Positions 3,298 to 63,629 of a stretch of DNA of 64,000 nt are shown here, one piece after another. Within the stretch, counting starts at the first letter, position 1. Each line of letters begins with the position of its first letter. Source of the stretch: Pelagomonas calceolata. Taxonomy: Eukaryota. The notes under the pieces are model-generated. The model was not told the origin of the DNA, made no database searches, and was given only the letters and a program-made list of their open reading frames with translations. A program made the position numbers and the translations under genes. The stretch lies in NCBI GenBank assembly GCA_918797485.1, contig CAKKNE010000002.1, positions 4,526,001-4,590,000 on the forward strand, in the 5' to 3' direction.

Positions 3298-5861
3298 ATG
3301 GCAGAGGACCAAAGCCAGCCCATCCCCACGCGCGGCCGCCTCGCGCCGAGCTGGAGCGAAGCCCTCGCGAGAACGGACAAGCCCAAGCTAGGGGGAGATG
3401 CCTGCTGGGGCGGCGCCGCGACCTTAGCGGAGGAGCTCGCTCTACTCGGCGACTTCATGGCACCCAGGAGAATCGAGGACGCCGTCGAGCAAGGACTGGT
3501 GAACGCCGTCTCGGAAGCCTGCAAAACCGCTTGTAATGCGGAGGCTTTCCGGATTGGGCCGCCGACGCAGTGTCGGCTCAGTGGTGATCCAGCCTTGCTC
3601 TGCTGCGTGACGGCCAAGTCCGCGGATTCATTGGCCAAAGAGTTGGAGAAGGACCCGGCCAACGTAAAAGTCGACGCCGTCGACGACGCGAACGCGCGCT
3701 CGGCCTGCGGTGACGTGCTGTTATCCGGTGCGCGAGTAGGTTGTGTGTTGGTCGAGCGTGCGAGTGGTGCCCGCGCCCATATTGCACTCGTAGAAAACGT
3801 GGACTACGCCGAGGCTTTGCGGTTACGCAACGCCGACGCGGCGGCACGGTTCAATGCGCTAGCGCCTCGGTCTACCAGAGAGTCCGCAGTACCGAGAGTG
3901 TTCCGGACGGCGTTGTGTGTACATGGTCTGGACTCGGCGCGGGGCCTGGGCTGGTCAAAATTAGCCGAAGCCTTACATGCACTGAACGAATTGCGGCGCC
4001 ATCCGTCCAAAGCCAGACGCGGCGATGAGGCTTCCCTAGAACTCTGTGATAGACCTCTGTACGTCAACGACAAAAACGTACTTCGCGATAAGGAAGACCA
4101 CGGCCTCACAGATGATCAAGAGTTCCTCAGCTTCTCGACTGATGCGCCCCTCACCGAGGAACGCACAAGGAAGGTCCTCTCAGACTTACGAAGACGAGTC
4201 CTAGCAGCACACCGAGGCGGCGGCCTCACCTGCGAGCAGCTGCGTCGAGACTCGCGGCGGAACACGTACAAGACTGGCAGCTATTTTACTGATGACGGCG
4301 ACCTCGAAGAATTGGATCGGGATTTGGTGGAGCAGGCGAAGCTACGACTGCAGAATGGCGAGATGCTGCAGCGGCCCCTGGATCTCTTCGACAAGGCTCC
4401 TGTCCAGAAGATAACATACTCGAAGGAGACCGCGTTAGTTGTGGCAGAAGATGAAGACCAGCGGGCTACCAAAAAAAGAAGAGGTGGCGCTCTGTTGCGG
4501 CTCGTGGAGTCGGCGAGACCGCCTCCTCCACTCTTCGGGCCGCCACCGCCGCGGACGGCCGACGAGCAGCGCTGCGCCGCCGCTGTTGATTGCGCTCGGT
4601 TGGAGCCTGCGTGGAAATCAACCAGTGCGTCGGGTGCACCCGACAATTCGTCACTAAGTCATTTCTCGGCGATGGCGCGGCCGTCCTGGCTCGGTCGAGC
4701 GGTGAGGAACGAGCACCACCACGCTATGGAGCAGGCGTCGCGTCGATGGCGTGGAGGACGACGCGACGATTCGAATGCGCCGTAAAATTTTGATTTCCAC
4801 ACAGGTTGGAGCTGGAAGCCGCCGGTACGTCCAAGAACAACTCCGTCTTAGGTGCAGCCTTACCGGGAGGGGCTTTACGCGACATGCGGGCGAGGCAGCT
4901 CCTCGCCATTTTTGTCAGGTCCTGCGGAAGCGCCAATAGAGGCTCAGATGTCCTATCGGTCCAAAGCGCCTACGCCGCTTGCCTGTTACGTGTCTTGAAG
5001 CACGACGCCCCTTATCCGGAAGCCTGGTCTCCAACAGAACCACTCGGCGCGCAGGGGGCCCTGTGGCGCGCGACACGGCTCGGCGACTCGAACTTGGAGC
5101 ATAGGGAGGCGGCTCTGAGACCGGCTCCCTTGCACGGTACTGCGAGAGATTGTAAAGCTCGAGCGGACGTCGCCGACGACGCCTACGAGGCCATTGGCCA
5201 TTTGACGGCGGCATTGGGTGCTTCTCCCTCCAATGCTTCGTTACTGGCTCAAAGAGCGGCAGCTTATCTAGCTTGCGACCTGACGAACCACGCCCGCTCC
5301 GACGCCGCGAGATGCTTGGCCTTAGCACCGGCCTGGGACGGCGCGTTGAGATGTGCCGCGCAAGTCGTGCACGGGTCGCAGCCGATGCTGAGCGCCTTGC
5401 AGGACTACGCCGCTTTGGTCCGACGGCAGGCGCCGGCTCCTTCCGATGTAACGGACGCTCCACCTGTCTCGGGAGATATTGCGTCGTTGAAAAGTTACGC
5501 GGACGGGGAATTCCGAGCCAAGCGCCTCCCCGAGGCCGTGACGGCCTATACCCGATGCATCGCAAAATGTGCGGACGAGGACGACGTCGACCCACAAACG
5601 GTGGCGGCTTTGTTCTCGAACCGGGCCGCGGCCTGCATGGCTCTCAATTCATTCGGCGACGCTCTTAGGGATGGGGTTGCTGCCGCAGCTGTAAAGCCGG
5701 ACTGGGTCAAGGGACATGTGAGAGTCGCTTTAGCGCTGCGGGCCCTGAACCTACCTAGGGAAGCCATCGCGGCCTACCACAGCGCTCTCAGGTGCAAACC
5801 GGGCGACGCGGACCTCAACCTAGGCCTCTGCGACGCCGTCCAAGAAGCTAGTTCTAAATAA
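3298..5861 (+). CDS. TPR-repeat protein, two exons (3298-4598, 4805-5861)
   Basis: Removing intron 4599-4804 fuses ORFs 3298 and 4806 in frame (...CAR|LELEAAG...); C-terminal TPR motifs (LFSNRAAACMAL, PDWVKGHVRVALAL). Confidence 0.8.
4599..4804 (+). mobile_element. Introner intron (206 nt, GT-AG); element 4607-4804
   Basis: TIRs CTGCGTGGAAATCAA / TTGATTTCCACACAG; perfect 8-bp TSD GTTGGAGC at 4599-4606 and 4805-4812; removal restores the frame. Confidence 0.93.
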
Positions 5862-6339
5862 ATCTGTTATTCATGTAGTCCCGCAGCTTTGCGTTCTCGG
5901 TCCGGAGCTTGTCGTTTTCTTCTCTCAATTTCTCGTTGGCCGACTCCAACACTTGATTGGCCGCGACGAGCTCCTCGTTTCGTCGCCGGAACACGCGACA
6001 CGCACTCTCAGGAGAATGGTCGAATAATCTTTGCCGTTCCCGCGCCTCGGGCGCCGAGGCGCGTCGATGGGGCCGTCGCGGCCCGTATTTCGACACCCGC
6101 CCATCCAGACCCGGATCATAATCATCGAGCTTATCTAAAATCTGGCCGTGCGTCTTCTCGGCCTTGCGGATGAGCGACGCGCAGCGCTCGGCGTCCTTCA
6201 TGTCGCCCGGTTTGTCCGTGAAACTTCCTTTCCGGAAGGAGAAGGACGCTCTTGACGAGCGGGACGACCGGTCCGATCTTGCTGAAACGGGCCTGCTTCC
6301 TTGGAAGGACGACCGCGCCGACGGGGGGCGGAAGCTCAT
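5854..6339 (-). CDS. Hypothetical protein, Ser/Arg-rich N-terminus and C-terminal coiled coil
   Basis: 161-aa ATG ORF with heptad-like LVAANQVLESANEKLREENDKLRTENAKL; its 3' end overlaps the TPR gene by 8 nt. Confidence 0.65.
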   Translation of the reverse strand: MSFRPPSARSSFQGSRPVSARSDRSSRSSRASFSFRKGSFTDKPGDMKDAERCASLIRKAEKTHGQILDKLDDYDPGLDGRVSKYGPRRPHRRASAPEARERQRLFDHSPESACRVFRRRNEELVAANQVLESANEKLREENDKLRTENAKLRDYMNNRFI

Positions 6340-23956: not shown

Positions 23957-23980
23957 GCTAGCGTCGTCCCACACTAGCAA
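23957..23980 (+). promoter_or_regulatory. Double-CTAG intergenic motif copy (degenerate)
   Basis: GCTAGCGTCGTCCCACACTAGCAA between divergent genes. Confidence 0.5.
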
Positions 23981-24075
23981 AATCCGCAAGCCAGTCAGAG
24001 GCCACTCACAGCGACGCCAGTAGCATTGCAAGTGTTGTGACTCAACAACGCAGCTCCTGGCACCGCAGAGACGCC

Positions 24076-27665: not shown

Positions 27666-28894
27666 TCACGGCTGCTCGAAGACGCGCCACGGCTCCTCGA
27701 CGTCGTCGAGGTCGTCGTCCGCGTCGCCGAAGGAGAGCGCGTTCCGGGCCGCGCGCCGCCGCTCCGCCGCCCAGCGCCCTATTTTCAACGGCCTGAGCCA
27801 GGGCGGCGGGGCGCCGACGCAGAGGTTGAACTGGACGCACAGCTTGACCGGGAACCAGATGACGTAGGACCAGAGGACGCCCGCCGCCCACCAGGCCACG
27901 ACCTGCGCGGACGTCGCATTTCGTTAACCCAACGCACTGCCTGCTTTCCACGCAGGGCCGCGACGGGCGCGTCGCTATCGGACCCGTCGAGACTCATCGC
28001 CTCCAGGACGAGGAAGCCGCACGCGAGGAGCACGAGGGGCAGCACGACGGCGTGGCCGAGCGCCTCGAGGGTCTTCTGCGTGCATCTGAAAACCGTTTCC
28101 CGCTTGCGGCCCCGCCGCTCGAAGCGCGCGCACGGACACGCCAACAAAAACCACAGGAGCTCCGCCAGAATTAGGAGAGGCACGGAGATGTAGGCGACCG
28201 TTATTTGCGCGTTGTGCGCGTAGTTGTTTAGCGACGTCCAGGGCCGCTCGGCGCGCGACGCGGCACCCGCCGCCCAGATCGCGTAGGCCTGCTGGACGAG
28301 TTCCGCCGCGAGGGCCTCGCTTCTCCCATAAGGATGGGCCGGGTCCCGTAAGCAAAAGAGGGCCGGGTGGTTGTTCCTCGCGTAGAACCAAAAGTCCTCG
28401 AGGTAGCCGCGAGGGAAGGGCGAAAACCACTTGAGCAGCGACGGCGTCGTCTGGACGTCATCCAACCCTTTACCCCAGTAGCACCGGCCCTTCACGAGGC
28501 CCATCTCCCGCAGGTGCCTTACTCGTTCAACCGCCATGGCCTGGACGAAGCGCTTCCAGCCCCGCCGCGAGACGAAGGGGCCGCTCGAATCGTCGATCTC
28601 CTGCAGCGCGCGCCCGACGCCTCTCCGGTCTCGCAACAGCCCCTTCAGAATCGCGTTGCCCGTCTCGCGCACGTAGTGCACGACCGCGTCGGACCGGACG
28701 CCCTGCCGCAGCTCCTCCGCGCTCAGGCGCCCGTCGCCGTTCGTATCGAGCAAGTCGAAGATGGGCTCCGCGCCGCTCACGTCGATGACGTCCGCGTTGG
28801 ACAGCGCCGCCAGCACCGCGAGCTCGTTCGGCGGGCCCAGGGCCGCCTGGCGGGCTTCACACTCGGCGTCGGAGGCATCACTGGCGCGCATCAT
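27666..28894 (-). CDS. EF-hand plus multi-pass membrane protein, two exons (28894-27965, 27902-27666)
   Basis: DTNGDGRLSAEE EF-hand; hydrophobic segments; removing 27903-27964 joins ...SDAP|VVAWWAAG in frame. Confidence 0.7.
27903..27964 (-). mobile_element. Short degenerate introner-like intron (62 nt, GT-AG)
   Basis: Ends CTGCGCGGA / TTTCCACGCAG flanked by near-duplicate GGCCACGAC / GGCCGCGAC; frame restored. Confidence 0.7.
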
Positions 28895-29464: not shown

Positions 29465-30938
29465 ATGGGCTGCGGCGCCTCCGCGCCCATGGAGGAGAAG
29501 ACGAGCCCCCTCGACGTCGACCGCACGCCGTCCGCGCGGCTGCGGGTCGAGCGGTCGCTCTCCGCGTCCGTGCGCGGCGAGACCGCCGTGACGTTACGAG
29601 GCTACGAGTTCTCCGGAACACTCGGCTACGGCGCCTTCGCGCGCGTGCTCAAGGCGCGCCATATAGCATCAGGTGGAGACCGCGCCGTCAAGGTCATCGA
29701 CAAGGCGGTGCTACGGAAGAAGAAGACGATGAGGAGGAGCGGCTCGGCGATTGCCGTCTCGTCCGCGCTAGATAAACTCGAGGCGGAGATCACTTTGCAA
29801 AAAGACTTCGCGCACGGTCATATTATCAGGATCTTCGAGGTCGTCGAGGACCCGGTCGCGGACCGCACGTTGCTCGCTGTGTGGAAATCAAATTTACGGC
29901 GCGCTCGTCCTGAATCGCTGCGTCGACCTCCACGCCATCGACGCGACGCCTGCTCGATGGCGTGGCGATGTCGGTTCCTCACCGCTCGACAGAACCAGCG
30001 CGGCCACGCCATCGCCGTGCACCCGACACACTGGTTGATTTCCACACAGGTTGCTCGTGATGGAGCTCGCCGCCAGAGGACCGGTCATGACGTTTGACGG
30101 GAAGCTCTTCTCCTGTGCGGTGTCCGGGGAAGCCGTCGAAGCCGACCGAGCGGCGCGCATCGTGGCCGAGGTCGCGTCGGCGTTGTCCTACTTGCACATG
30201 CGGCACGTCGCGCACCGCGACCTCAAGCCGGACAACATCCTGCTGGATGCAAGGGACGCGGCGAAGCTCTGCGACTTCGGCGTGTCGCACACCTACGGCA
30301 ATTCCCTGGGCGGCCGGGACGGCGACAGCGGCGCCTTCGACCGCAACGTCTACGGCGCGGACCGGGCCAAAAGGTTGAAAGAAATAGGAAGAGCCAAGTC
30401 CGCGGCGCAAGTCGCGCAGACCGAGGGCACCTACGCGTACTGGGCGCCGGAGATGATGAACGAAGCGGCGACGTTCAACGCCTTCTCGTGCGACTGCTGG
30501 GCGCTCGGGGTGTGCTTCTACAACTTTAGGACGCGGCGGTCGCCCTTCGAGAGCGAGACGCTGGATGGGCTCTTCGATCGCATCAGTCGCGCCGACCGGG
30601 ACCCGGCGCCTGAATATTTGTCGCCCACGGAAACGAAGCTGCTGGACGGGTTATTGGAGAAGGACCCGGATGCGCGGCTCACGGTGGGAGACTTACTGGA
30701 AGACCCCTACCTATCGGCCTATGCACTCCACGAGGAGCGCCAGACACAGTTCCGGAACCGGACGCCGAGGGAGAAGCTGTCGAAGCGCGGTTCATTAAGA
30801 GGCGGCTTCGCGGGGAACTCGCCGCTCGCGCGCGGCGACGGCAAGGAGGAGTCGCCGCAACTCGAGAAGGCCCCCTCGGAGACGATCTCGGAGCTCGCGA
30901 CGCTGCAGAGCGAGAACGCGACGCCTCCTCCGGCGTAG
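29465..30938 (+). CDS. Ser/Thr protein kinase (CaMKK-like), N-myristoylation signal, two exons
   Basis: MGCGAS start; GYGAFARV, AVKVI, HRDLKPDN, DFG, GTYAYWAPE, DCWALG; exons joined by intron 29869-30049. Confidence 0.92.
29869..30049 (+). mobile_element. Introner intron (181 nt, GT-AG); element 29877-30049, opposite orientation to the 4607 copy
   Basis: TIRs CTGTGTGGAAATCAA / TTGATTTCCACACAG; perfect TSD GTTGCTCG; splicing gives DRT|LLVMEL. Confidence 0.94.
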
Positions 30939-31174: not shown

Positions 31175-33459
31175 ATGGTCAGCTTCGCAAGCGCCCTGGT
31201 GGCCTGCATTGGGGTCATAGCTGCGGGCTACGCCGCCGGCCGCCTCAAGATCATCGACACGAAAGGCGCGGGGCCCGCAGCGATTGGCGCCTTCGTCGGC
31301 CGGTTCGCGCTGCCGGCGCTGCTGTTTCGCGAGCTCGCGACGCTGCGCTGGAAGGACATCGACGGGCGGCTCCTGGCGTCCGTGGCCGCGGCGAAGGCGT
31401 TGTTGTTCGCGGGAGTGCTCGGCTGCTCGACGCTGCTGGAGAGCCGGCGGGCGGGCGACGACCAGTGCACAAATTAAATTTCGCGGCGCCGCGTCGCGCT
31501 GAGAAATGCTCAGTTTGTGAAGAATTATCGGGTGCACCCGACTCACTAGTTGATTTGCACAGGCGACGACCGCGACTTCAAACGCCTCGTGGCCGCGTCG
31601 GCATCGCGGGCGATATTTTGCACGCAGTCCAACGACTTCGCCCTTGGCCTGCCGGTGATCCAGGCGCTCTACGGCGGCGACGAGGGCCGGCGCATGGTGG
31701 CCATGCTCTACTTACTCGCATCGATCAGTGCATGAATCAAATTGCGCGGCGCTTCTCGCCCACGGCTCAATCATGACCTCCACGCTATCGACGCGATGCC
31801 TGCTCGATGGCGTGGCGATGCCGGTTCCTCACCGCTCGAACGGAGCCAGCACGGCGGCGTCATCGCCGAGAAATGACTTAGTGAAGAATTATCGTGCACC
31901 CGACGCACTGATTGATTTGCGCACAGGCGCCGATCTCGCTCGTGCTGCTGAATCCGATCGGTTTCCTGCTCATGGGCCTGTACGAGCCGGACGAGGGGCG
32001 GTCAGGGCGGAAGGAAACGGTCCGGCGCGTGCTGAAGCGCGTCGCGACGACGCCGCTCGTGGCTTGCACGGCGCTCGGCGCTTTGTACGGCCTGGCCCTC
32101 GGGCCGGACGCGCTGCCGGCCTTCGCCGACGGCTTCCTCGGCATCCTGGGCGCCGGATTCACGCCGACCGCTCTGTTCTTCACGGGCCTGTCGCTGGTCG
32201 GCCGGGTGACGCCCGAGACGGACCTGCTGGTGCCGCTGGCTCTATCATTCGGCAAGTGCGTCGCGCTGCCCGTCGTTATTTACGCGATCCTCGACGTGGC
32301 CGGCGCGGACGCGCTGTCCAAGGGCTTTGGGTTCGTGGTGGGCGCGATCCCGACGGCGCCCTCGGTCCTCGTCTACACGAACGAGTACCTGCGCCACGAC
32401 GAGGCCCTCGTCGCCAAGACGTCCGTAGCATTGGTCGTGTGCACCGTCTTCTCCACCCCAATCATCTTCGCGGCCGGCCTCGCGGCGCGGTCCGAAAGTA
32501 TGGCGACGGCCGCCGACGCCGAGGTCGCCGACGCCTTCCTCTGCGTGCCGTCGGCGCTCCTCGCGACCTGGTGCCTATGTTCCTTCGCAGCGACGTGGCG
32601 CGACGAGGGCACCGACGACGACCGCTTCGCCATACTCTCGGTGAACGCCCTGTGCCACGCCGTCGGCGCTTTATCCGCAGCGCTCTGCTCCGTCGCGTCC
32701 GGCACGGCGGGTGCCGCCGTCGTCGAGGTCGCGCGGCTCGCCTCCTGCGGCACGGCCGCCTGCGGAGCGCTGCTGCCCGCGAACGGCCCGAAGCGCCGCG
32801 GATCGGCGCTGTTGACCGACGACGTCGCCGCGAAGACCTGGACTTCGGCGCAGCGTATTTCGGCGTTCGCGTTCGCGGTCCTGGTGCCCGTCGCGGCGAC
32901 GGTGGCCGTGGCCTCTCACGGGGGCACGGCACGAGACCGCTGCGGCGTCGCGTTCGGCGCGCCGCAGGATGCGCTGACCTTCGTGTACATGCTAGCCTGC
33001 GTCGGCGCCGCGTTAATTGGCCTGCGGCGCGCGCGGACGGCCGCGGACCGGCGCTATGCGTCGAATCCCGACCTCGTAGCCCTCGCCGCCAACGCGGAAG
33101 GCATCGCGTCGCCGCTCCGGAGCGACGGCGGCGAGGTCCCTACGGCGCCGCCGAGCCCACGCCTCTCGACGGCGATCGGCCACCGCCTGCTTTTGTTCGT
33201 CCTGTTGCACGCCGCCGTGGCCTTTCTCGCCGCCGCCGCGTCGGCGTCGCGCCTCGCCACGCGCCGGATGGCAGCCGTCGACGTGCTCGACCTCGTCGAG
33301 CGCACCGCGTCCTCCTTGATGGGCGCATTTCTGTTCCTGATCTTTGGCCTGGCCAAGGACCAGGTTCTCGTGCGGCACATCTCCGACGCCGTCGCGCGCC
33401 TGCGAGAGCCCCGGTCCCCGGCCCCTTCGCCTTCAGGCTTCACCGAGCAGTGGTTCTGA
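31175..33459 (+). CDS. GPR155/LYCHOS-like PIN (auxin efflux carrier)-fold membrane protein, three exons
   Basis: FVGRFALPALLF, IFCTQSNDFALGLPVI, LAPISLVLLNPIGF, PTAPSVLVY; exons 31175-31454, 31563-31717 and 31927-33459 join in frame. Confidence 0.8.
31455..31562 (+). mobile_element. Introner intron (108 nt, GC-AG)
   Basis: Perfect TSD GCGACGAC; degenerate TIRs CAGTGCACAAATTAA / TTGATTTGCACAG; shares the GAAGAATTATCGGGTGCACCCGA subterminal block. Confidence 0.88.
31718..31926 (+). mobile_element. Introner intron (209 nt, GC-AG)
   Basis: Body homologous to the 29877 and 53863 copies; TSD GCATCGAT / GCGCCGAT (2 mismatches); frame restored (YLL|APISL). Confidence 0.88.
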
Positions 33460-33480: not shown

Positions 33481-35847
33481 TTACCCACCTCGCAGCGCCG
33501 CCATGATGTCGAAGCTGTCGTCGTGGCCGCCGCTCGCCAGGTCGCTGTTGTCGTCCGGCGCGGCATCAGCCTCGTTGACGAACGCGCTCGTCTCGCGGTC
33601 CCCGAGCACGCACTGCTGGTAGATGGTCTGCCGCGCGCGCTGCACGCGGACCTGTGTGGAAATCGATTTTCGCGACGTCGTCCCCGTAGCGGCATCTGCT
33701 CGATGGCGTAACCTAACTCACTGTTTGATTTCCACGCCGACGCGGACGGCCGTCGACACCGGCGTGAACAGCTGCTCGATCACCGTCGTTAGTAAGAGGA
33801 ACCCGACCGAGAACGCGATGAAGAGGCCGAGCTTCATCTTGACCGCCTGGTAGTCGCGCCTCCCGTCCTCCTCGTACCTTGGATTCAGGAAGATGGGCGA
33901 GATGTCCACGACGAAGAAACAGAGGGCCACGTTCGTCACGCAGCCGATCTTCGACAATATTTGAAAGATGTCCTCCCAGATCCCGATGTTCCTCACTTCC
34001 AGCGGCAGCGGCCTTCTATGAAGCTTGAGCAATTTGTGGCCGTCCATCCAGATCTGCAGCGTGTTGAACGCGAAGCTAATCAGCGGCGCGAAGGGGTAGA
34101 CCGCCGTGAACATGGTCACGTAGCCGAACTGCAGCGTGAGCTCCACGTAGTCCTCGATGGGACCCTCGATGTTGTCGTACTCCGTCAACTCGACAAAATC
34201 CTTGCGCGCCTCCGTGCGCCAGTCGGCGTCGGGTTCTCCCTCAGTACCACCTAAATTGTCCTCGCAGCCCAGCCGCTGGATCCGCCGCTGGGACAGGAAC
34301 CGCAGCACGACGGGCAGCACGGCCTGCTTGGCCAGGGAATACCCCGCCTGGCCCGCGAACAGGATGGCGATCTGGAAACTCAATTCGCCCTTGCAGTTAT
34401 TGGTCGGTGGGCACATCTTATCGTCGTCGTAGCGCATGGGCTCGATGAACGCGACCCAGAACTGCGGGAGGAAGGTGTTGATGAGCTGGAAGATGACGTC
34501 CTTCATCGTCAGGTGGTGCGCGTATTCTTCGTCGGTCTTCCAGTTCTCGTATTTCGTAAGTATGCGGGCTAGAATCGAGCCGAGGGCGTTGACGCCCTGG
34601 ACCTGGCACATCGCAATTAATATAGACAAGTGGTTGTTCGCCAGGCCCTTTATCTGTTCGTCCTTCTGGTGCTTCAGTACGTTGACGTACGCGACGACGC
34701 CAAGGTCCGCCCATAATAAAACGACGATGATCGACCAGGCGACCGTCTGGCGCCCGCGCCGCCACCAGTCCGGGAAGTCCAATTCGACCTTGCCGTGCAC
34801 GACCGACGTCATGGGCAGCCCCTCGAAGGCCGGCCGCACGCGCGGCTTCGCGTCGGCCCACTGGTTCGCGCCCCAGCGCTTGTTGCAGACCTCCTGCTGC
34901 CGTTTGAACTTCTGGAGCGTGATGGAGCACATGATGATCACCAAGCCGGCGTGCAGCGCGTTGGGCACCTGGTGGATGGCCCCGTGCCCGTTGAACGGCG
35001 GCACGAGCTTCATCAACGCGTACAGCACCAGGCCGATGATGCCGTTGATGAGGTAGGACGTCGCCCACGTCGACACGAAGAGGAAATAAAAGCCCATCTG
35101 CTCGCCCAAATACACTCTAATATGATTGATCGGCTGCTCCCACGGCTTCAGGATAATTTTATAATTGCCGAGCCACTCCTTGTGCAGCGCGTCCCTCTTA
35201 TCATGGTCGTGAAGCAATATTAACGTCGAGATGCGCGGCCCGTCGCCGCTCTTGTCGGCCTTGTACGGGAGGAGCGGCGCCGGTTCCACGCGGTCCATGG
35301 CTCTCGCGTCCAACCCGGCGCCGCGCGCCGCGCCCGGCAATTTGGAAGAAGCGCAGAGCATCCGCAGAATAACCTTGTGCCGCGTCGTATCGACGAAGGC
35401 CGTGAACATGTCGATCTTCGCCGGCCGCACGACCGCGTAGATATAATCGAAGAGGGGGAAGAGGGCCAGCTTCTCCGTTAGTGACCCGAGGGACCAGCCG
35501 TGCTCGTCGGCGGGTCTCTCGTTGAACGCGAGGGGCGGATCTAATGCCGCCGCGGCGGCCTGGAGCTTGGCCGGGTCGAGGCGCCCGGGCACGCCCTGGG
35601 CGAACGCGAACTCCATGAGGCGCTGCTGCGGGGCGCCGAGCTTGAGGACCGAGACCTCGTATTGGCCGCTGAGGGCATCGAACTCCTCCGTCACAAAACC
35701 GGCATGTTCCACGCGCTCCTTGAGCTCCTTCAGGTACGCGGGCGAGACCTTGGGCACGACGATGGCGTAGTCGTAGTGGACCGACGGAGCCGCGGTGAGG
35801 CGCTCGGCCTCGTCCAGCATGTCGCCCGCCGGGGCGACCTTGGACAT
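33481..35847 (-). CDS. Anoctamin/TMEM16 family channel or scramblase, two exons
   Basis: QPINHIRVYLGEQMGFYF, LTKYENWKT, EDYVELTLQFGYVTMF, PFAPL, RRPLP, IGIWEDI; last exon 33651-33481 ends in TAA. Confidence 0.92.
33652..33747 (-). mobile_element. Introner intron (96 nt, GT-AG)
   Basis: Element 33652-33739, CTGTGTGGAAATCGA...TTGATTTCCACGCCG; perfect TSD ACGCGGAC; removal extends the anoctamin ORF by 57 codons. Confidence 0.9.
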
Positions 35848-38555: not shown

Positions 38556-40595
38556 TTAACTTTCACATTCGCCGACGAGGCGCGCGACGTGCTCCGCCGT
38601 CTCGGCCGGATGCGTGAGCGGCGCGAGGTGGCCGCCCTTGCTGAGTATTGAGGTCGTGAAGCCGATCCGCTCAAGCACCGCGCGCAGTCCGCGGAGACAG
38701 CGCTGCGATCCTACACCGGGGCACGCCGACAGAACAAGGTGCTTCGCGGCAACGTGTTCGAGCGCCGCGAGGTCCCGTTTCGATGAGTGTCCGCGCGCGC
38801 CGTCGATCGACCCTATTTCGTAGGCGCAGCCCGGGATGGTCGTGTCGAGCAGGACTTTTTGCTGCGGCTCCGGCACCATTGCCCACGTGTGGCTCTCCTC
38901 CTCGGCCAGCCAGAAGCGGTGGAAGCACTCGCCCCAGCCGTGGTACCCGCTCTGCGCCTCCGCCATCATGCGTCCCAGGAACGCCGACGCGTCGTCCACT
39001 CCGCCCGTGCGTGCCGCTTCGTCCGCACGATCGTCGAACGGCGCCGCGGCCTCCAAGAGAGACATATAATTGGGCTCCACGACAACAATGCCCGCGACCT
39101 ATGTGGTTATCATTATGGGGCATCTTCTCCGGACGCAGCATGCCACCTCACGCGTTGCCGCGTAGCGCAGCGCGACCGCGGCACCGTGCGAATGGCCCAC
39201 AACGATCGGCGCCCGGTCGTCGTCGCCGAGCGCGTCCTTGGCCGCAGTTTCTACCAGTGCCGCCGTGTCGTCGAGGGTTTGAGGCCTCCCATGCGGCGGC
39301 CACGGCGTCGTGCCGCCGGCGCCAAACAGATTGGGCGCAACGACGCGGTGATTTGGCCCGAGCGCGTCGCAGAGGGGCGCCCACTGCTTGTGGCTCGAAC
39401 CGCTGCAGTGCACGGCGATGACGGGAGCTCCGGCGCCGCGGACCGCGTACTCGACGCGGAAGCCCGGCGCCGACGGCACCTTGAGGTCGACGCTTCGCTT
39501 GGCCCACGTCGACATCTGCCGCCGTCGAAACGAAAACGTCCGCGACGACCCGGCGAATTGCTTGCAGTCGTAGCGCGAGAGCTGCAGCTTCGAGAGATGC
39601 CGCATTTCTCGCTTTTCAAACCCATCTCTTTCGTAGGGCGGCCGCGGCGCGGAGACCTCGTCCGAGAAGGCGGGGTTGCCGTGCGTCCGCCAGTTGTGCC
39701 CGCAGCAGCCGTCCCACGCCTCGCCGATCAGGATGTATTCCACGAGCTTCGTCGACCGGCGAAAGCTCTCGGTCCAGTCCACTCCGCTCGGCATCCACGC
39801 CGCGACGGCCACGTGCGCGCCCTCCGCCGCGCGCTCCGCGTTTACGTTCTCGACGGGAAATGCGGGGGCGAAGCGCCACGAGCTATCATCAGTCGCGGTG
39901 ACGGCGACGGCTTCGGACCGCCCCCGCTGCTCGAGCGCGCGCCGCAGGAACTGCGAGAGGCGGCCGTCGCCGGCGCCCACCTCCACGACGTCCAGCGTAG
40001 ACACGCCGGCCTCGTCCCTCGCTTGCAGGAGATGGTCAGCGAGGCCGTCGACGTAGTCTGAAGTATAAAAGTCGTAGATCTCGTGGTTCTCCATGTAGGC
40101 GTTGACCTCGGACCGGCCCGCCACCGCGCAGCCGGCGGCCTCGAGCAGCGCCTCGTAATCGAGGCCCTCCGTCGATGATGAGCCCTCGAGCTTCGCTAGC
40201 GCTTCGTCGCGCGGCGCAGACTCCAGGCTATCGTCGGTGGCGTCAAAGGCCCACTTCCCAAGACCAAAAAGTTTCTTGAGCTCTGCGAGCGACGGCGGCA
40301 CGCGCGGGTCCGCCTCGCGCAACGCCGTGGCCGCCCTCATGTAGCGGTCGCTGCCGCGGTACCGGCGGTCGATGTGGTCCTTGCGCAGCCACGCCTTGAG
40401 TCTCGAACACGCGGCGATGGCGTCCAGGTCTGATTTTTGCTCGTTGGGCGCTACGAGCGCACGACGCAGCACGCGCTCTGCATCTTCGACCGGTCTATCG
40501 GCGATTGAGATGCTCCGCGCGAGCTGGCACAGGTAGCTTCGAGCACTGCTGTCGATTGGTGCTGCTCTGGCAAGCCTAAGGAGCATCCTGTCCAT
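38556..40595 (-). CDS. SAM-methyltransferase-like domain fused to an alpha/beta hydrolase, two exons
   Basis: VVEVGAGDGRL; HCSGSS, VVAPNLFGAG, GHSHG, GGHLAPL; removing 39099-39146 gives ATRE|VAGIVVVEP. Confidence 0.75.
39099..39146 (-). mobile_element. Highly degenerate introner-like intron (48 nt, GT-AG)
   Basis: Ends CTATGTGG / GACGCAG; flanks CCCGCGAC / CATGCCAC (5 of 8 match); removes an in-frame stop. Confidence 0.6.
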
Positions 40596-51302: not shown

Positions 51303-51637
51303 ACAAAGACGTGTACCTAAGTTATTTATGTGAAACTGCGTTTCCGTGTTCCGAGCTCGACGCGCGCCAGTCCGAAGGTCAAACGGGCAACATGACGAAG
51401 GCATCCGTCCTGAGACCACTGCGAGGTGCCCGGGATGGGTGAATGGCTCCCGCACCAGGGACCAATAGGATCAGAGCGCCGCAGCAGGACAGCTCCGCAG
51501 TCCATTCCAGCACGCCGCGGGAAGCGCCGCGCCGCGCCAAATCAGCTTGGTTCAAGCGCTGTGTAACTGCTAAATCGCTGTAGAGCGCAGCAGGTTAAGC
51601 GCCGCACCGCCGCGCAAATATCGGCGCATAACTGAAT

Positions 51638-54600
51638 ATGGCTGAAGTCTTTGACGTCGATGCGCCGGCGCCGCAGCCGCCGCAGAAGAAGCGCTCACAC
51701 GACGTCATCGACCTCCTCGAAGACGACGACGTGGTGATAGTAGCGCCGCCCAAGAAACCGCGGCCGGAGGTCGTCGACGTCGACGCGATCGACAGCGACG
51801 ATGATGCGGACGACAACGGCGAGCGCGGGCTCGGGCCGCCGCGGCCGCGCGTGAAGCCCGAGCCACCGCGAGCGCTCGCCGTCGCCCAGCCCTGCCCGGC
51901 CCAGCGCCCGGTGCCGAAACCGGAGCCGCGCGGCCCGCCCGTGCCCGTCAAGCCTGAGCCGAAGAAGGAGGTCAAGCCCAAGGTCGAGCAGAAGCCCAAG
52001 GTCGAGCTCGACGACGACGGCGACCAGTCGCGCGCGGTGTCCTCTTCGCGTCGATGGCGTTCGTGGCCCATGTTCATTCACCGCGCGCAGGCCCATGTTC
52101 ACGCTAAAGAAGAAGAAGAAGAAGGCGGCCGCACCGTCGCCGGCGCGGCTCTCCGAGGACGGCTCGGACGACGACGAGCCCGCGGAGCCGCCGCCGCCGC
52201 GCAGCGCCTTCCCGCAGTGGCTCAAGGCGCGCGAGGACGCGGGCGACGCGCCCCCGCTCGACCCCGACCAGCGCCGCGCGTGCGACTGCATCGTCGTCCA
52301 GAGCAAGAACACGTTCGTGACCGGAAGCGGCGGCAACGGCAAGTCGCACGTGACGCGAACCATCCTCGACTTCTTCGAGAAACATTACGGAGATCAGCAC
52401 TCGCCTGTGTGGAAATCAAATTTCGGGACGAACCTAACTCACTGATTAATTTCCACGCAGATACTCGCAAAAGGTCGCCGTCTGCGCGCCGACGGGCATC
52501 GCCGCGACGCACGTGAACGGCACGACGATTCACTCGGCACGTTCCGGCGTAACACGTCATCGCGTCGCCGCGACATCGTCGACGCAACGCCACGACGCCG
52601 CGACGCCCTCGCCGCGGCCTGACGTGTCGCTCGACGCAGGCAACGGGCATCGGCGTGCCCAAGTGTCAGGAGGACTTCCGCCGCATGCATCAGGGCTTCC
52701 GCAAGGAGCTCTGGACGAAGCTCGTCGAGGTGCTGATTATTGATGAGATCTCCATGTTGAGCGGCGAGTGGCTAGATAATTTGGAGAGGATGCTGCGGGA
52801 ACTGACGCATTACTACGGCCGCGGCGAGTTCCAGCAGTATTTGAGGATGCCGATGAAGGACATCCCGGCCTTCGGCGGCATCCAGGTCGTCGTCGTCGGC
52901 GACTTCTACCAGCTCCCTCCCATCCCGGCGACGATCCACGGCGAGACCTTCCAGAGATTAGATCATGGGCTATTCCACGCGCAACACATCCCAAAGGACA
53001 GCCACACAAAAAAGATCTACTTCACGAACCGGGGCTACGCCTTCCAGTCGATGGCGTGGCGCGCGGCGGAATTTGTGTACGTGCACCTGCGCACGTGCCA
53101 CCGCATCGGCGCGTCGGAGCGCGAGTTCGTGCAACTCATGGGCCGCATCCGCCGCGGCGAGGCGCGCGACAAGGACTACGATCGACTGAACAAGGTCGGG
53201 GCCAAGACGCACGCGGACGACGCCGAGCCCACGGTGCGTGCGCGGCGTTTTTTTTTCTTCGACCCACGCCATCGCCTCACGAGCTACACACGCAGGAAAT
53301 CTGGCCGACGAACGCCAAGGTCAACGCCGTCAATAGGCAGGGCCTCGAGCGGCTCAAAGATCCGCCGAAGCGGTTCGAGCATGGCACTTGGGTGCGACCG
53401 TTCAAAAATATTCCGCCCTACATCTCCGTCGACGAGGTGACGCACGCTTTGAAGACGTGCGACTTCATCAAGTCCGCGCCGGCGTCGTCGAACGCTCACT
53501 GTTGCCTGTCGCCGAGGAAAACTCACGGTGTCTCACGCAGGTACAACAAGCTTGTGGAGCCTACTGTTGATTTGAAGCCGGGCGCGCGCATTTTACTCCT
53601 CAAAAATATTGATACACGTAATGAAGCGAAAAAGGAACAACCGCTCGTCAACGGCACGACGGGCCGGATCCTGCGCTGGGCGACGGCGGCCGAGGCCGAG
53701 GCGGCGCTCAAGGCCCGCGAGGTCTACCTCGAGGACAAGCTCGAAGCCGCGCGCGAGCAGCGCCTCGCCAAAGGTAAAAGGTCGCACGAGACGTCGCTGG
53801 AGCGCAAATTGTACGAGGAGCTCCAGAAGCTGCGCGAGCACGTGCTGCAACATTGCGGGCACCTGTGTGGAAATCAAAATTTTATGGCGCGTTCGTGCTG
53901 AATCGTCGCGTCGTCCTCCACGCCATCGACGCGACGCCTGCTCGATGGCGTGGCGATGTCGGTCCCTCGCCGCTCGACTGAGCCAGGTCAGCCGCGTCAT
54001 TTCCGAGAAATGACTTGGTGAAGAATTGTCGGGTGCACCCGTCGCACTGGTTGATTTCCACACAGGCGGCCACGACGTCGACAAGCAGGGCCAGACGATC
54101 AAGACGGCCGGCACATTATTGCCGTGGGTGCGGTTCTCCAAAGGTAGGGAAGAAGTCGTGCTGCCGGCGCTCTTCGACGACGAGCTCGTGGGCCAGGGCG
54201 TCGCCTACGTGATGCAGATCCCGCTCAAGCTCGGCTACGCCGTAAAGATCTGTGTGGAAATCAAACAGTGAGTTAGGTTATCGAGCAGACGCAGTTACGA
54301 GGACGACGTCGCGTCGATGGCGTGGGGCGTTCGAAATTTGATTTCCACACAGGTAACCATCCACAAGAGCCAAGGGATGTCCCTCGACGCGGCGACGGTG
54401 TCCTGCTCCGGGTCCTTCGCCGAGGGCCAGGCGTACGTCGCGTTGTCGCGGGTCACGGGCGCGAACGCGCTGGCGCTGGCGCGGCCCGTCCGCGGCGTCG
54501 ACATCAAGACCCCGAAGATGGCGACCGCCTTCTACGAGCTACTGAATTCGCTCGAGGCACAAGCAAAAATCCTCGGCGCGCCGCTCGACCTCGGACCGCT

Positions 54601-54886
54601 CGCGCTGCGCGAGCGCTTCGGCGGTACGGAGCACGACCCGCTCGGCGCCGCGCGCGGCATCGGTCCCGGGCCGCAACTGACGGCCCTCGAGGCGATCGAG
54701 CGCCTCGAGCCGTCGCTCGACATTGAGGAGGAGCAGCCCCACGTCTTACACTGGCAGACGAAGAAGCCGTCCGTCGCGCGCGAGGAGTTCGGCGGCCACG
54801 GCGTCGGGTCGACGACGAAGGGCAAGGGCGGAAAGTGCTTCAAGTGCCAGCAGGTCGGCCACTGGGCGGCGGAGTGCCCGAACTAG
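51638..54886 (+). CDS. PIF1: PIF1-family 5'-3' DNA helicase with SIM-like N-terminus and C-terminal CCHC knuckle; about 7 introns
   Basis: TGSGGNGKS, APTGIAA..GTTIHS, IIDEISM, FGGIQVVVVGDFYQLPP, LVNGTTG, QIPLKLGYA|VTIHKSQGMS, GQAYVALSR, CFKCQQVGHWAAEC; frames join across introns 52027-52090, 52397-52460, 52537-52639, 53234-53295, 53472-53540, 53855-54065 and 54242-54352. Confidence 0.9.
52027..52090 (+). other. Intron (64 nt, GT-AG) with its own inverted ends
   Basis: GTCGCGCGCGGTG...CACCGCGCGCAG; removal joins DQ|PMFTL in frame. Confidence 0.7.
52397..52460 (+). mobile_element. Introner intron (64 nt, GC-AG)
   Basis: CTGTGTGGAAATCAA...TTAATTTCCACGCAG; TSD GCACTCGC / ATACTCGC; restores GDQ|YSQKVAVCAPTG. 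Confidence 0.85.
52537..52639 (+). other. Intron (103 nt, GC-AG)
   Basis: GCACGT...GACGCAG; restores the PIF1 motif TIHS|ATGIG. Confidence 0.75.
53234..53295 (+). other. Intron (62 nt, GT-AG)
   Basis: GTGCGT...ACGCAG; joins EPT|EIWPTN. Confidence 0.8.
53472..53540 (+). other. Probable in-frame intron (69 nt, GT-AG)
   Basis: AA|GTCCGC...CACGCAG|GT; a multiple of 3 with no stop, so not required by the frame. Confidence 0.55.
53855..54065 (+). mobile_element. Introner intron (211 nt, GC-AG)
   Basis: Full TIRs; TSD GCGGGCAC / GCGGCCAC; body is the reverse-complement homologue of 4607-4804. Confidence 0.93.
54242..54352 (+). mobile_element. Introner intron (111 nt, GT-AG)
   Basis: Full TIRs; TSD GTAAAGAT / GTAACCAT; restores LGYA|VTIHKSQG. 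Confidence 0.92.
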
Positions 54887-54935
54887 AGCCGTCCCTCCCC
54901 CCACGTGTGTAAAGAACAAGCAAGTTATATACACA

Positions 54936-56270: not shown

Positions 56271-56673
56271 TGGTTTGTGGGGCTGCCCGCGCGGTGGCCC
56301 AGGCACACCGCGACGGCGTCGGGCAGCGTCGACCCTGTGAACACTGGCTGATCCAGGCTCTTTCCAGCCTGGCAGAGTGAGAGCGCTCTGTGCGGGGTGT
56401 TTTGACGAGGACGAGTCCAGTCCTGCACGGCGCCGCCCGGGAGTCGCTGTGACGGGTGCCAGACGAGTCGGGCAGCAGCCTCGTTCGTGCGGGATAGACT
56501 CTCCAGTTTCGAGAGGACACGGAGGGAGAAATAGCCCTGAGCGCAAGGCAACAAGCGCCCCAAGCTCACGCTGTTGCCGGGGCAGCCCTGCCATTGCGCC
56601 GCAGGCAGCCCTTTGAGCGGCGCACCCTCGGGCGCTCGGCACTCACTGATTGGGCAGCCCAGAGAGCTCCAGC

Positions 56674-59600: not shown

Positions 59601-60860
59601 CCAGCAGAATTCGGCCGAGACGACGTGGCGCATGGGCAATCTAAGCGCGTGCGGCCACATGCTCGAGGACTTTCCTCTACTCTTCGACGTGCGGAAGTTC
59701 CAGATCTCGCGCATTAACTTTTATTTGAAGGATCTCTTCGCGGGGACGGCTACTTCTGATATGATCGAGGCGGTTCGGTACGGTGTCGTTTATGCCTTCT
59801 GCTCGATGGCGTGACGTGACGGGGGCTTCGCGCCGACGCCGTCGCTTCGATGGCATCGCTTCGAACCACGCGAGCCCCGCGCCGCCGACGCGTCCGCTCT
59901 CGCGACGGGACGCCGTCGACGCAGGTCCACCTCAAGTCCTTCACGCGCGCCGCGTCGGGCAAGATCGACGACCACGTCTGGATCGAGAAGCTCGACCTAA
60001 GAACGCACCTCCAGGCGCCCCCAAGTGCCCCGGAAGGCATCGACTTGCTCGCCTTGTGCCAGAAGTTACTCACGAATGCGATCCGGCCCGTCCTCAAGGA
60101 AGTCAATATAACAGGTGCATTAGGACATATTGCGGGCGCCTTCTTCTCTTCATCATCATCGAGGGGCCAGTCGACTTTGGATGTGATTCCGACCCCAGAC
60201 GTAGTGGCGCAAGAAACGTTAAAAGGCATGAAGGAGGCCCAGAAGAGCATGAAGCGGGGTGTGGATAATGCGGCCGGCTGCTGTTTACTGGCGAAGGATT
60301 CGTGTCTCCGGAATTGCTTGCACGCGGGCGCGGACAAGTACTGCAACACGGACGACAACACTATTTTATTACGATCATCTATATGCGAGGGTTTGTTGGA
60401 CAAACGGGTCAAAAGGTACCGGGGCGAGTGCTGCGCGTGTGGTGGCTGGTCTCGACCGGTACTGGAACATGTGAGGTTGAAGAAGGGTTATGGGGGTCTC
60501 GTGCTGTACTACACGAAGACGTCGGCGTCGGGCAACAAGGGCGCCACGAAGAAAATAAGACTGCGGAAGGTGCGCTACGACCGCGACTCGCTGTCGTGTT
60601 TGTTGGAGGACGCGCGGGGCCGCAAGCGCAAAGAGGCCATGTTCCGCATGCCCGCTATTTCTGACGTCGCGACGGAGGACAAGCGGCTGCCCCTCAAGGA
60701 GTGGTGGGCGGCGATCGCGCCCGGCGTCGAGCCGAGTCAAAACTGGGTCGAGCTCCGCGTGTCCGCTGCCGATGAAGTCACGGAGTCGTCGGAGGACGAA
60801 TCGGCGCCGTCGTCTCCCGTCGCTAGGAAGAAGTCGGTGCGGTTCGAGGAGGAGTGGTAA
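56674..60860 (+). CDS. Large multidomain protein: DEP-like, C2-like, TM, EF-hand pair, C2-like, possible PH-like; two exons
   Basis: FTSEAAVRAL...QLVARGYVLHV; DTNGSGTIDARE and DVDDSGELDFDE; LRVTVVSC...VWNE C2-like; intron of about 59773-59924 joins ORFs 56650 and 59850. Confidence 0.75.
59773..59924 (+). other. Intron (about 152 nt; donor could be the GC at 59770)
   Basis: Ends GACGCAG|GTC; needed to join the two ORFs in phase 0; contains TGCTCGATGGCGTG shared with the introners. Confidence 0.65.
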
Positions 60861-60978
60861 TTGTGTTCATTAGCTTTTTTCGTTACTCGGAGGGGGTGGA
60901 GGGGAGGGGGGGAGGGGTAGGGAAGGTGTTGCAGCGCTCACGATACCTTGATCATCGTGTACTGCGATCCGTGTCGGC

Positions 60979-61746
60979 TTAGTAGCAGGTGCCGTGGGCG
61001 CCGGTGTCGTAGGACGAGCACCGCGTGCAACCGAAACCACCGGACGTGAGGCAGTCGCTGTCCTTGAAGCAGACTTTGCCGCACGACTGGCCGCCGGGAG
61101 ACGGGGTCGGCGCCGGCGCCGGCTTCGACGGCTTTTGGATGTTCCACTGGGCCGTGCTTGGGAGACCGTACTTAGAGCTGCATTCCGTGCCGCCCTTAAC
61201 CGACGATCCCTCTTGCGTCATGCAAATCGTTTCGCCCTGGAACTTCGACTTGAGAACGATGGCTTGCTCACTGGTCGTCGTCCAAATCGAATTCTTATCC
61301 CCAGATTTGCATTTATAAAGACCGATGGAATCGCCGGCTCTGAACGACCCCCCACCTAACGCATCGACGCAAAACTCCTCGCCTTTGTAATTAGTGAAGC
61401 GGATCTGCCCCTTGTGCTCGTTGTAATGGAAGAGCTGAGACTGCTTACCGTTGCACGGCTTAACGCCAATCTTCCCGTTCTTGTAGGGGGCTAAAACTTC
61501 CATGCATTTTGTGTTTGTGCGCGCGTCCGCGATCTGCACGAGGTCGCCGGACGACGACGAGTGGAAGTCCGCGCCGCGAATACTGGGCGTCGTCGACACG
61601 GCCGTCGCGGCCAGCGCGCCGAGCACGAATGCCGCGATGGCGGCGCCGCCGATGAGCGTCTTGGCGTTGACCTTAATGTCGCGGCTCAGGAGCGGCTTAT
61701 CGGCCTCGACGTCGGCGGAGACGGGGAGAGTATTGTAGGTGGCCAT
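60979..61746 (-). CDS. Membrane-anchored ricin-B-like lectin with Cys-rich C-terminal mini-domain
   Basis: N-terminal TM; KCMEV...PC...QSQLF, FCVDA...LYKC...NSIW, ICMT...AQW beta-trefoil pattern; CGKVCFKDSDC...CTRC...C tail. Confidence 0.75.
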   Translation of the reverse strand: MATYNTLPVSADVEADKPLLSRDIKVNAKTLIGGAAIAAFVLGALAATAVSTTPSIRGADFHSSSSGDLVQIADARTNTKCMEVLAPYKNGKIGVKPCNGKQSQLFHYNEHKGQIRFTNYKGEEFCVDALGGGSFRAGDSIGLYKCKSGDKNSIWTTTSEQAIVLKSKFQGETICMTQEGSSVKGGTECSSKYGLPSTAQWNIQKPSKPAPAPTPSPGGQSCGKVCFKDSDCLTSGGFGCTRCSSYDTGAHGTCY

Positions 61747-62021
61747 TTTGAATTGTCTTGCGGTTGTTTTGGAAAGTCTCGCGAGCTGTGCACTCTGAGA
61801 CTTGGGCGTTTTAGTTGGTGTCGATTGCGCTGGCAAGTGCGCTCTCTGCTCCGAGGGGGCGCTCTCTCCGCGTTCCTCATCGGCGAGCGTCGTCAAAAAC
61901 GTAGAGAACCCCCAGAGGCGCCCCAGGATACGTCCCTGGTGCAGGTTCCACCGTGAAGCCAGCCTTTGCAGGTGGCCGCGCCGCGCGCCGGGACCGCGTC
62001 CAACAACACCACATTACTCAC

Positions 62022-63629
62022 CTACCGAGACACCGCCGCCTCCCTTTCACGCTTGCGCCACGCCGTGATCGTCATGTCCCCGATGCGCTCGAGCGGCGGC
62101 GGGTGGTTGTCCTTCCAGCGCGTGTACTTGTCCGACCACATCTGCGTCGCGTCGGGCCCGTGGCCGTACATTTCCCAGAGTTCTAAGCCACAGGCAGCTA
62201 GCGCCGCCTCGATACGCTCCGCATCGCCGGCCGGCCAGAGCCCGTCCTCGGAGCAGAGCAGCGCGCCCTGATACGACTGGCCGGCCTTGCGCGCGGCACC
62301 CGAATAGTGGAAGACGGCCCAACTGAGATCATCGGCCGCGTCGACCGTCGTCCAATGTTCTTCGCTGACGATGCCATTGTCGAGCGTCGTCAAGGTCCAC
62401 AATCCCGGCACGCCGCCGCGGGGCACGCATCGGTAGTGGCGCTTCGTCCAGACCTGTGTGGAACCCGTCGCGGCGATGGCGTGGGGTTGAGCGATTTCCG
62501 CACCGGTCCAGACCAGCTCGCCCTGCAGCGTCTCGACGCAGAATACAGGGTCATACCAGAGCCCATCGCCGCTCTTGGTCGGGTAGAAGATCTGGTGCTG
62601 CATCGGAAACGCGTCGTAGGCCGGGTTCGCACCCACCACAATCTTCCAGGACCACGGCTGTTTAGAAGACGCCGAGGCGGGGTCCTCGAGGTGGCCGATG
62701 AAGATCTGCCGCGCCGCCTCGAGGTCGACGGGCCGGCCGCGCCACTGAGAGAGGACAGGTACTTTTGGTTCAGTCAGGATCGGCGCATCGGATTGGAAAC
62801 AATTGTTCTGCTGCAGGATGCACAGCGAGAACTCCTCCAGTTGTGGGGTCTCGTTGGACACGATCACTCGGTAAGACCCGACCTGATCCCTCAAATCCAC
62901 GGCGTTGAGCGCGTCGATGGCCGACTTCGTCTTCGGGTCGCTCAGCGCCGCCGCGATCTGCGGGCCGCAGCAGTCGGTCATGGTCTTGAACTCCTGGAGG
63001 TTCCTCACGACTCCTTTCTCCCAGCTAGGATTGATGTCGCTCGCGACCACGGCGCACGGCCGCACCAGTGCGTGCACAAGGAACAATGCGGCGAAGAGCG
63101 CGTCCTCGGAGGAACCGCGAGCCAGGAGCAATTCGCTCTGCGCCAGCAGTCGCGCGCGACTCGCCTTCGTCGTGAACGGGAGGGCCTTCTGCAGTTTATC
63201 TAAAATGCTGGCGGCGCCCGGTGTCCACCCCGCGCAGAACGCGAGCGCTTTGACGTCCGACGAGCACTCGTCGTCCGCCACGAAGCACGACGGCTGGAGC
63301 CGCGCCAGCGTCGCCTTCGTCTTTGAGACGTCCGTCACGCCCAGACCAATCACGACGTCGCCGGCCGCCGCGTCCGTCGTGCCGCTCACCTTTGCGTCGA
63401 AGTGCCCCACGCGTCTCGCGAGTTGAGACGCTACGGTGGCGTGAGCTGGATTTGGTCGCGGGCTCGACGCGCCGTATACCTTCGAAACGCCGTCGCCGTG
63501 CAAGAAGAGCACCGTGGCATCGTCACTGACAGCTCGCAGCGCCGCTGGCGTGCGCACGCGTCGGGTTGGTGCCAGCAGAGCGGTGCTCAGCTGGCAGCCC
63601 AAGAGTAGTACTAGGGCCCGTGCAGTCAT
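62022..63629 (-). CDS. VDR: Violaxanthin de-epoxidase-related (VDR) lipocalin-like protein, plastid-targeted
   Basis: FSLCILQQNNC, WKIVVGANPAYDAFP, WYDPVF, DNGIVSEEHW, DDLSWAVFHYSGAARKAGQSYQGA; contains a hidden in-frame intron. Confidence 0.85.
   Translation of the reverse strand: MTARALVLLLGCQLSTALLAPTRRVRTPAALRAVSDDATVLFLHGDGVSKVYGASSPRPNPAHATVASQLARRVGHFDAKVSGTTDAAAGDVVIGLGVTDVSKTKATLARLQPSCFVADDECSSDVKALAFCAGWTPGAASILDKLQKALPFTTKASRARLLAQSELLLARGSSEDALFAALFLVHALVRPCAVVASDINPSWEKGVVRNLQEFKTMTDCCGPQIAAALSDPKTKSAIDALNAVDLRDQVGSYRVIVSNETPQLEEFSLCILQQNNCFQSDAPILTEPKVPVLSQWRGRPVDLEAARQIFIGHLEDPASASSKQPWSWKIVVGANPAYDAFPMQHQIFYPTKSGDGLWYDPVFCVETLQGELVWTGAEIAQPHAIAATGSTQVWTKRHYRCVPRGGVPGLWTLTTLDNGIVSEEHWTTVDAADDLSWAVFHYSGAARKAGQSYQGALLCSEDGLWPAGDAERIEAALAACGLELWEMYGHGPDATQMWSDKYTRWKDNHPPPLERIGDMTITAWRKREREAAVSR
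62454..62513 (-). mobile_element. In-frame introner intron (60 nt, GT-AG)
   Basis: Perfect TSD GTCCAGAC (62446-62453, 62506-62513); ends CTGTGTGGAA / ATTTCCGCACCG. Confidence 0.85.

Follow-up and report, generated by a model that had tools for sequence, protein, structure and literature searches.

The stretch analyzed here (the window) comprises 64,000 nucleotides of the Pelagomonas calceolata genome (GenBank assembly GCA_918797485.1, contig CAKKNE010000002.1, positions 4,526,001 to 4,590,000 of the forward strand), and all positions below are counted from its first letter. The window has a GC content of 64% and a high gene density, and the named homologues of its proteins come from Aureococcus anophagefferens (55-56% identity, with one at 43%) and Chrysophaeum taylorii (44%). 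These point to a pelagophyte other than Aureococcus, and the GC content and intron features fit Pelagomonas. An earlier note, made from the sequence alone, had proposed that 11 introns in this window belong to one family of transposable elements with terminal inverted repeats (TIRs) and 8-bp target-site duplications, spliced out of the message without a scar. All 11 inserts lie where the note had placed them. Ten are clear members of one family, with elements of 52-203 bp that have inverted ends and a flanking 8-bp duplication, and the membership of the eleventh, at 39099, is doubtful. The same list missed four RNA-confirmed introns that have no full inverted repeats.

The evidence on these introns comes from several kinds of data. 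Spliced reads are raw poly(A) reads from four runs of one sample, mapped over positions 49000-64000. Between 23000 and 42900 the table of joints was swamped by cross-mapping from other copies of the element (at a likeness of 90, contigs included), and contig breaks and depth were used there. The contigs that we call RNA-type are those of run X12, which was only guessed to be RNA, and the DNA contigs are those of run X2, from another study. For the PIF1-like helicase gene, metagenome contigs were scanned with part of PIF1, which gave 10 wild loci (L numbers) from 386 candidate stretches. Two pairs of these loci are identical over the compared parts, leaving 8 distinct alleles. The introns and the PIF1-like host gene are as follows (for the minus-strand inserts 27903, 33652, 39099 and 62454, the coordinate by which we name them is the acceptor end):

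4599..4804, + strand: intron in a TPR-repeat protein gene, GT duplication plus 198-bp element in reverse orientation; duplication 8/8, terminal repeat 14/15; spliced junction collinear with the uninterrupted homologue P0013.
27903..27964, - strand: intron in an EF-hand membrane protein gene, GT duplication plus an extra C plus 53-bp element; duplication 7/8; RNA-type contig break at 27961; homologue P0032 collinear.
29869..30049, + strand: intron in a protein kinase gene, GT duplication plus 173-bp element; duplication 8/8, terminal repeat 15/15; splits the Pkinase profile into positions 1-70 upstream and 73-263 downstream.
31455..31562, + strand: intron in a PF03547 membrane transporter gene, GC duplication plus 100-bp element (a variant starting with CAG); duplication 8/8; in-frame stops if retained; four homologues of 84-98% identity collinear.
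31718..31926, + strand: second intron in the same PF03547 transporter gene, GC duplication plus 201-bp element; duplication 6/8; RNA-type contig break at 31927; five close homologues collinear.
33652..33747, - strand: intron in an anoctamin gene (Anoctamin family match), GT duplication plus 88-bp element; duplication 8/8, terminal repeat 12/15; RNA-type contig break at 33740.
39099..39146, - strand: 48-base GT..AG intron of doubtful membership in an alpha/beta hydrolase gene; duplication 5/8, terminal repeat 6/15; RNA-type contig break at 39145.
52095..54886, + strand: PIF1-like helicase gene (PIF1 family match, start approximate) with six introns; a single open frame across six RNA-shown junctions.
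52397..52460, + strand: PIF1 intron I1, GC duplication plus 56-bp element; 19 spliced reads; present in L059, L061 and L062, empty in L054 and L055.
52537..52639, + strand: PIF1 intron I2, GC..AG, no full terminal repeat; 18 spliced reads; absent in 5/5 covering loci.
53234..53295, + strand: PIF1 intron I3, GT..AG, no full terminal repeat; 26 spliced reads; present in L059, empty in five loci.
53472..53540, + strand: PIF1 intron I4, GT..AG, no full terminal repeat; 62 spliced reads; present in L058-L060, empty in L054-L057.
53855..54065, + strand: PIF1 intron I5, GC duplication plus full-length 203-bp element; 41 spliced reads; empty in 9/9 covering loci (7 distinct alleles).
54242..54352, + strand: PIF1 intron I6, GT duplication plus 103-bp element in reverse orientation; 47 spliced reads; present in L059 and L060, empty in seven loci.
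59773..59924, + strand: intron of 152 bases (GT..AG) within a large EF-hand gene, lacking a full terminal repeat; 113 spliced reads; weak likeness to the family core (score reached by 4 of 150 controls).
62454..62513, - strand: intron in a VDE-lipocalin (VDR-like) gene (VDE family match), GT duplication plus 52-bp element; duplication 8/8; 80 spliced reads on the expected strand.

The family has a 15-base terminal motif, CTGTGTGGAAATCAA. At up to 3 mismatches this motif matches the window 14 times, compared with 0.6 matches expected and a count reached by none of 100 shuffles, and the matches pair up into elements at the insert sites. The terminal repeats match at 10-15 of 15 positions in eight inserts and more weakly in 27903, 31455 and 39099. 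An unbiased scan of the window for a duplication plus an inverted repeat was swamped by GC-rich low-complexity matches. In five inserts (4599, 29869, 31455, 33652 and 62454) the first 8 bases of the intron are identical to those that open the next exon; the two agree at 7/8 positions in 27903 and 53855, at 6/8 in 31718, 52397 and 54242, and at 5/8 in 39099. The duplication copies have diverged from each other in six inserts. When the GT/GC positions are left out, 57 of 66 bases still match (permutation mean 22.5), and none of 100,000 permutations reached 57. The matching drops after position 8. Insert 27903 carries one additional C, which represents either a 9-bp duplication or an 8-bp duplication with a 1-base insertion. 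As the note had described, the upstream copy begins with GT (seven inserts) or GC (four inserts), and the intron ends in AG in 11/11 inserts when oriented with the host gene.

A family profile built from the ten window copies matches all ten at E 1.7e-4 or better. The profile does not match insert 39099; because of this, and because its terminal repeat matches at only 6/15 positions, we do not count it as a clear member; it is too decayed to assign. Long copies in unrelated genes are 83-87% identical in pairwise comparisons along most or all of their length. In an alignment of 16 copies (the ten of the window and six from fetched loci), the copies have common ends and nested deletions relative to a master of about 200 bp; the shorter ones retain both ends and are missing the middle, and they are likely internal deletions of the master. 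Short and non-coding, with shared ends and internal-deletion variants (52-203 bp), the family has the features of MITEs (miniature inverted-repeat transposable elements). Relative to the transcript, six window copies lie forward and four are reversed. The acceptor AG is retained in all 11 inserts, and the donor-side CTG is altered in four. In 8 of the 11 inserts a YTRAY resembling a branch point occurs no more than 45 bases from the acceptor (inside the terminal repeat in seven of those), where it may be used as the branch point. The family extends beyond the window, as the note had anticipated: the element is read through in 12 database proteins from about ten unrelated genes. In run X2 the contig depth, summed over the element, exceeds that of the flank by a factor of hundreds, although this depth sum is no copy number. 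Rfam returned no match for the element.

To what extent the inserts are spliced exactly, as had been claimed, is clearest between 49000 and 64000. Four inserts fall in this interval, and in all four the poly(A) reads skip exactly one copy of the duplication plus the element (joints 52396>52461, 53854>54066, 54241>54353 and 62445>62506, supported by 19, 41, 47 and 80 reads of the expected strand). Among the joints listed, the same reads reveal the additional introns at 52537, 53234, 53472 and 59773, and PIF1 becomes one reading frame once all six of its introns are removed. Elsewhere, the RNA-type contigs break at 27961, 31927, 33740 and 39145, exactly where the proposed boundaries would place a break. 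The inserts at 27903, 33652 and 39099 are genomic, because the X2 DNA contigs cross them without differences. Homologous proteins agree with the proposed junctions: that of 4599 is collinear with P0013 (the one of five close matches that covers the site), that of 27903 with P0032 (78% identity), and those of 31455 and 31718 with four and five close matches, respectively, out of 12. The kinase gene that contains 29869 is barely expressed in the run data for 23000-42900. At most sites, retention of the insert shifts the frame or adds stops. Overall, the length of the mRNA is unchanged, the donor comes from the duplication and the acceptor from the element, in 4/4 inserts by RNA and in 11/11 by sequence. 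Loose read ends at 53906-53948 mark dozens of poly(A) reads per run that come from a few other loci. Because the transcripts of these loci retain an element copy, not every genomic copy is fully spliced.

The wild PIF1 loci show the same positions with and without the inserts. By exon, their identity is 72-99%. Every locus except L057 and L063 carries one intron or more, and several contain neighbouring genes as well, which indicates that these loci are DNA. The note had suggested looking for empty orthologous sites, and these exist: among the covering loci, I5 is empty in 9/9, I6 in 7/9 and I1 in 2/5, with a single copy of the target at each empty site. The most distant loci (L054, L055 and L057) have none of the window PIF1 introns that they cover. 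The empty allele of I1 reads GTACTCGC, and this explains the drifted duplication pair of I1: apparently GT became GC in the intronic copy, and the exonic copy underwent a silent change. Conversely, four insertions of the same family occur at PIF1 positions that are empty in the window (two in L056, one in L058 and one in L060). Three of them have duplications of 6-7/8 starting with GT or GC, and the fourth ends with its contig. Over the window and the 8 distinct alleles, PIF1 has 12 intron positions, none of which is fixed, and some introns are common to several alleles at 72-95% identity over aligned columns. The pattern is not limited to PIF1. For the gene containing 27903, seven homologues out of 27 are interrupted at a single site that has no intron in the window, and two of the seven contain exact terminal-repeat peptides. 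We found no paper on the allele-level presence or absence of these elements in Pelagomonas, in a search that was thin on subscription papers.

Two further observations concern these alleles. At I6, position 3 of the duplication is A in both copies of the window (54242-54360) and G in L059:1651-1746 and L060:691-784, and the element of the window exceeds the other two in length by 23-25 bases. The I6 of the window and that of L059 and L060 are possibly two independent insertions at one site. Large internal deletions of about 780 and 950 coding bases occur in some wild alleles (L061:2659-2660, L062:918-919 and L063 at about 340). The deletion product is in frame in L063 and out of frame in L061 and L062, and the deletions are either real alleles or assembly errors.

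We are highly confident in the following reading: a single short, non-coding element with inverted ends gave rise to all ten inserts, those tested by RNA are spliced exactly, and the inserts likely arose by cut-and-paste transposition through a transposase encoded elsewhere. Insertion by such a transposase would duplicate 8 target bases. Where the target begins with GT or GC, the upstream copy of the duplication serves as the donor and the downstream copy stays in the exon, as the RNA showed in 4/4 inserts. Because both element ends read CTG...CAG, an AG acceptor is available at the downstream end whichever way the element lies. Selection would presumably remove copies that landed elsewhere in coding DNA. 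Once a copy is in place, its donor-side end and the duplication copy in the intron would drift, with the acceptor AG kept.

An alternative is an RNA route, in which the lariat left by splicing enters other transcripts by reverse splicing and is then reverse-transcribed, as proposed for fungal introner-like elements. Such a route would suit the fact that all ten clear copies of the window are introns in coding genes, and that no transposase was found. We nevertheless regard it as very improbable. The copies occur in both orientations relative to the transcript, the repeat unit begins 8 bases inside the intron and the donor varies by site, and the 8-bp duplication is site-specific. Furthermore, PMC9860276 describes the fungal elements as having neither duplications nor inverted repeats. 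The introns could also be old ones that are being lost from some alleles, with the inverted ends acting as a splicing aid. The element ends do pair with each other in predicted folds, and the sharing of some introns among mosaic alleles, whose tree is unresolved, could be read in this way. This explanation is still less probable than the RNA route and is largely refuted by the empty sites, which have one copy of the duplicated 8 bases. The 83-87% identity of copies in unrelated genes, the absence of every covered window PIF1 intron from L054, L055 and L057, and the presence of the same family in other alleles where the window is empty all argue against it. Least credible of all, and refuted at the four tested sites, is that the inserts are assembly artefacts or unspliced insertions kept in the message: poly(A) reads from many other loci do carry element sequence, but another study's DNA contigs contain the inserts, the spliced reads pass over them exactly, and retention would disrupt the frame at most sites.

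Several points weigh against the transposition of a cut-and-paste element as we present it. Direct spliced reads cover 4 of the 11 junctions, the seven others being supported indirectly, and the RNA reads derive from one sample. The PIF1 alleles are mosaic and the allele tree is unresolved; the case for gain over loss is one of parsimony, based on the loci that are more distant. The window, the viral contigs and the GTDB contigs yielded no transposase with such ends, and for this reason we only infer the mobiliser. Finally, the element ends read CTGTG (CAGTG in two copies, at one end only), and they fail the YARNG motif given for hAT termini in PMC3014272.

The statement that no transposase is present in the window held for the 77 open reading frames (ORFs) taken into a Pfam-type family scan (75% of the 102 ORFs of at least 185 residues, plus one shorter), none of which matched a transposase family. 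In viral contigs, the 15-base motif has 53 exact matches, none with a paired end and a duplication, and the best alignments extend over 22-46 bases; we treated these matches as chance. The GTDB contigs gave one match, a truncated element end at the edge of a contig filed in a bacterial genome bin (L064:2627-2675), likely a chimeric contig end or algal contamination. The note had also called 8-bp duplications typical of hAT transposons. The length does fit hAT, and the ends do not. The length is not specific to hAT either, as Merlin elements (Merlin transposase being DDE_Tnp_IS1595) also make duplications of 8-9 bp according to PMC8101967. The assignment to hAT is thus unproven and relies on the duplication length and a published BLAST label. 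We rejected AanRAGL, the RAGL/Transib element of Aureococcus, as the mobiliser: PMC9435367 describes for it a 5-bp duplication and asymmetric ends starting with CAC, versus 8 bp and CTG here.

The element was also said to have produced most introns in the window. This is true of 10 of the 15 known window introns, but of only four of the eight shown by RNA in 49-64 kb (among the joints listed). Among the introns without full inverted repeats, I2, I3 and I4 vary among alleles, and L054 and L060 each carry one more intron of this type. With 59773 and 39099, this makes seven positions, and at five of them C[TG]G[CT]GT stands exactly at intron position 9. In the window background the pattern follows 63 of 22,697 GT/GC sites, giving P = 3e-12, a value that is optimistic because the pattern was partly chosen after viewing and the background sites are not real splice sites. 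One of the seven introns has an 8/8 duplication and the others match at 1-5/8. A pairwise test against the family core gave weak support at five of the seven positions (score reached by 1-4 of 150 controls) and no support for I4 and 39099. The family profile misses I2, I3, I4, 59773 and 39099 at their positions, the nearest match being inside 59773 at E = 4. I2 speaks against simple decay: it is confined to the window but seems older than the shared introns I1 and I6, which might be due to mosaic alleles or to a sister family. A link between these introns and the element family, perhaps as decayed copies, is likely but unproven.

A broader and more tentative proposal, which we hold to be possible rather than probable, is that this element or a sister family was the source of nearly all introns of the lineage, ordinary-looking ones included, and that these introns still segregate among wild alleles that recombine. 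The motif at position 9 in five of the seven introns above would be a remnant of the element end. The GC donors of roughly 14% of P. calceolata introns would then reflect target-site capture rather than GC content, and the mobiliser would be a transposase that makes 8-bp duplications, with ends unlike those of a typical hAT. The RNA-confirmed junctions together with empty wild alleles make this alga, which is abundant in the ocean, a clean system in which to follow how introns are gained, decay and become fixed in populations.

The window has other features that lie outside the element family. An inverted pair of 56 bases, 80% complementary and unrelated to the introner family, lies at 24093-24148 and 45754-45809. 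A 480-residue ORF (47519-48958, - strand) contains 33-base and 144-base tandem repeats and has no Pfam match. The region 46649-47012 is missing in L055. The ORF at 60982-62013 (- strand) has a beta-trefoil lectin domain (Ricin_B_lectin, with a weaker CDtoxinA match) and almost no RNA depth. The hydrolase gene at 39102-40622 (- strand) has a long N-terminal region without a Pfam match and might therefore represent a fusion or a pair of genes sharing a frame.

Introners are already known from this species. For P. calceolata, PMC9481584 counts 956 putative introner elements, whose ends are inverted and whose donors are GT/GC and acceptors AG. The window family shares with the introners described there an intron length peak near 210 bases, the GT/GC donors, the AG acceptor and conserved inverted ends. 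The published introner share is 15% of introns, compared with 10 of the 15 known introns in the window; if ordinary-looking introns are decayed copies, the published share understates the contribution of transposons. In Dataset S2 of PMC12130899, P. calceolata fam2 has 340 copies, a transposable element length of 202 bp, a TIR of 13 and the label 'co-opt 5-prime carry 3-prime'; its final class is TIR DNA / hAT, with a RepBase BLAST match to hATv-2N1_EHux. This length compares with 198-203 bp for the full-length window copies, a likeness of length and mechanism. The rows for fam2 show no call of an 8-bp duplication and no empty alleles in the parts of that source at hand, whereas both were found in our analysis. 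About 14% of P. calceolata introns are GC-AG, which 10.1101/2024.10.30.620910 ascribes to GC content; donor capture from the target site is an alternative account.

Similar systems occur in other hosts. In the introner elements of Aureococcus anophagefferens, as described in 10.1101/2020.10.14.339549 and PMC9860276, the element likewise carries one splice site and the duplication supplies the other, and the introns are MITE-like, lie in either orientation and leave the mRNA length unchanged. The host differs (a window protein is 56% identical to its named homologue), and the likeness is one of mechanism. The MITEs of the hAT superfamily share the 8-bp duplication, the short inverted ends and the lack of coding capacity, but differ in their YARNG ends, compared with CTGTG in the window, where no transposase was seen. 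For Polarella glacialis, 10.1101/2020.10.14.339549 describes introner-like classes 6, 8 and 10 in which an 8-base duplication gives the donor and the element end the acceptor, in both orientations; here the host is a dinoflagellate, the donors include GA, and the likeness is by description. Taken together, the window family is of the introner kind published for Aureococcus and Pelagomonas, with a known mechanism, and is probably already catalogued in P. calceolata.

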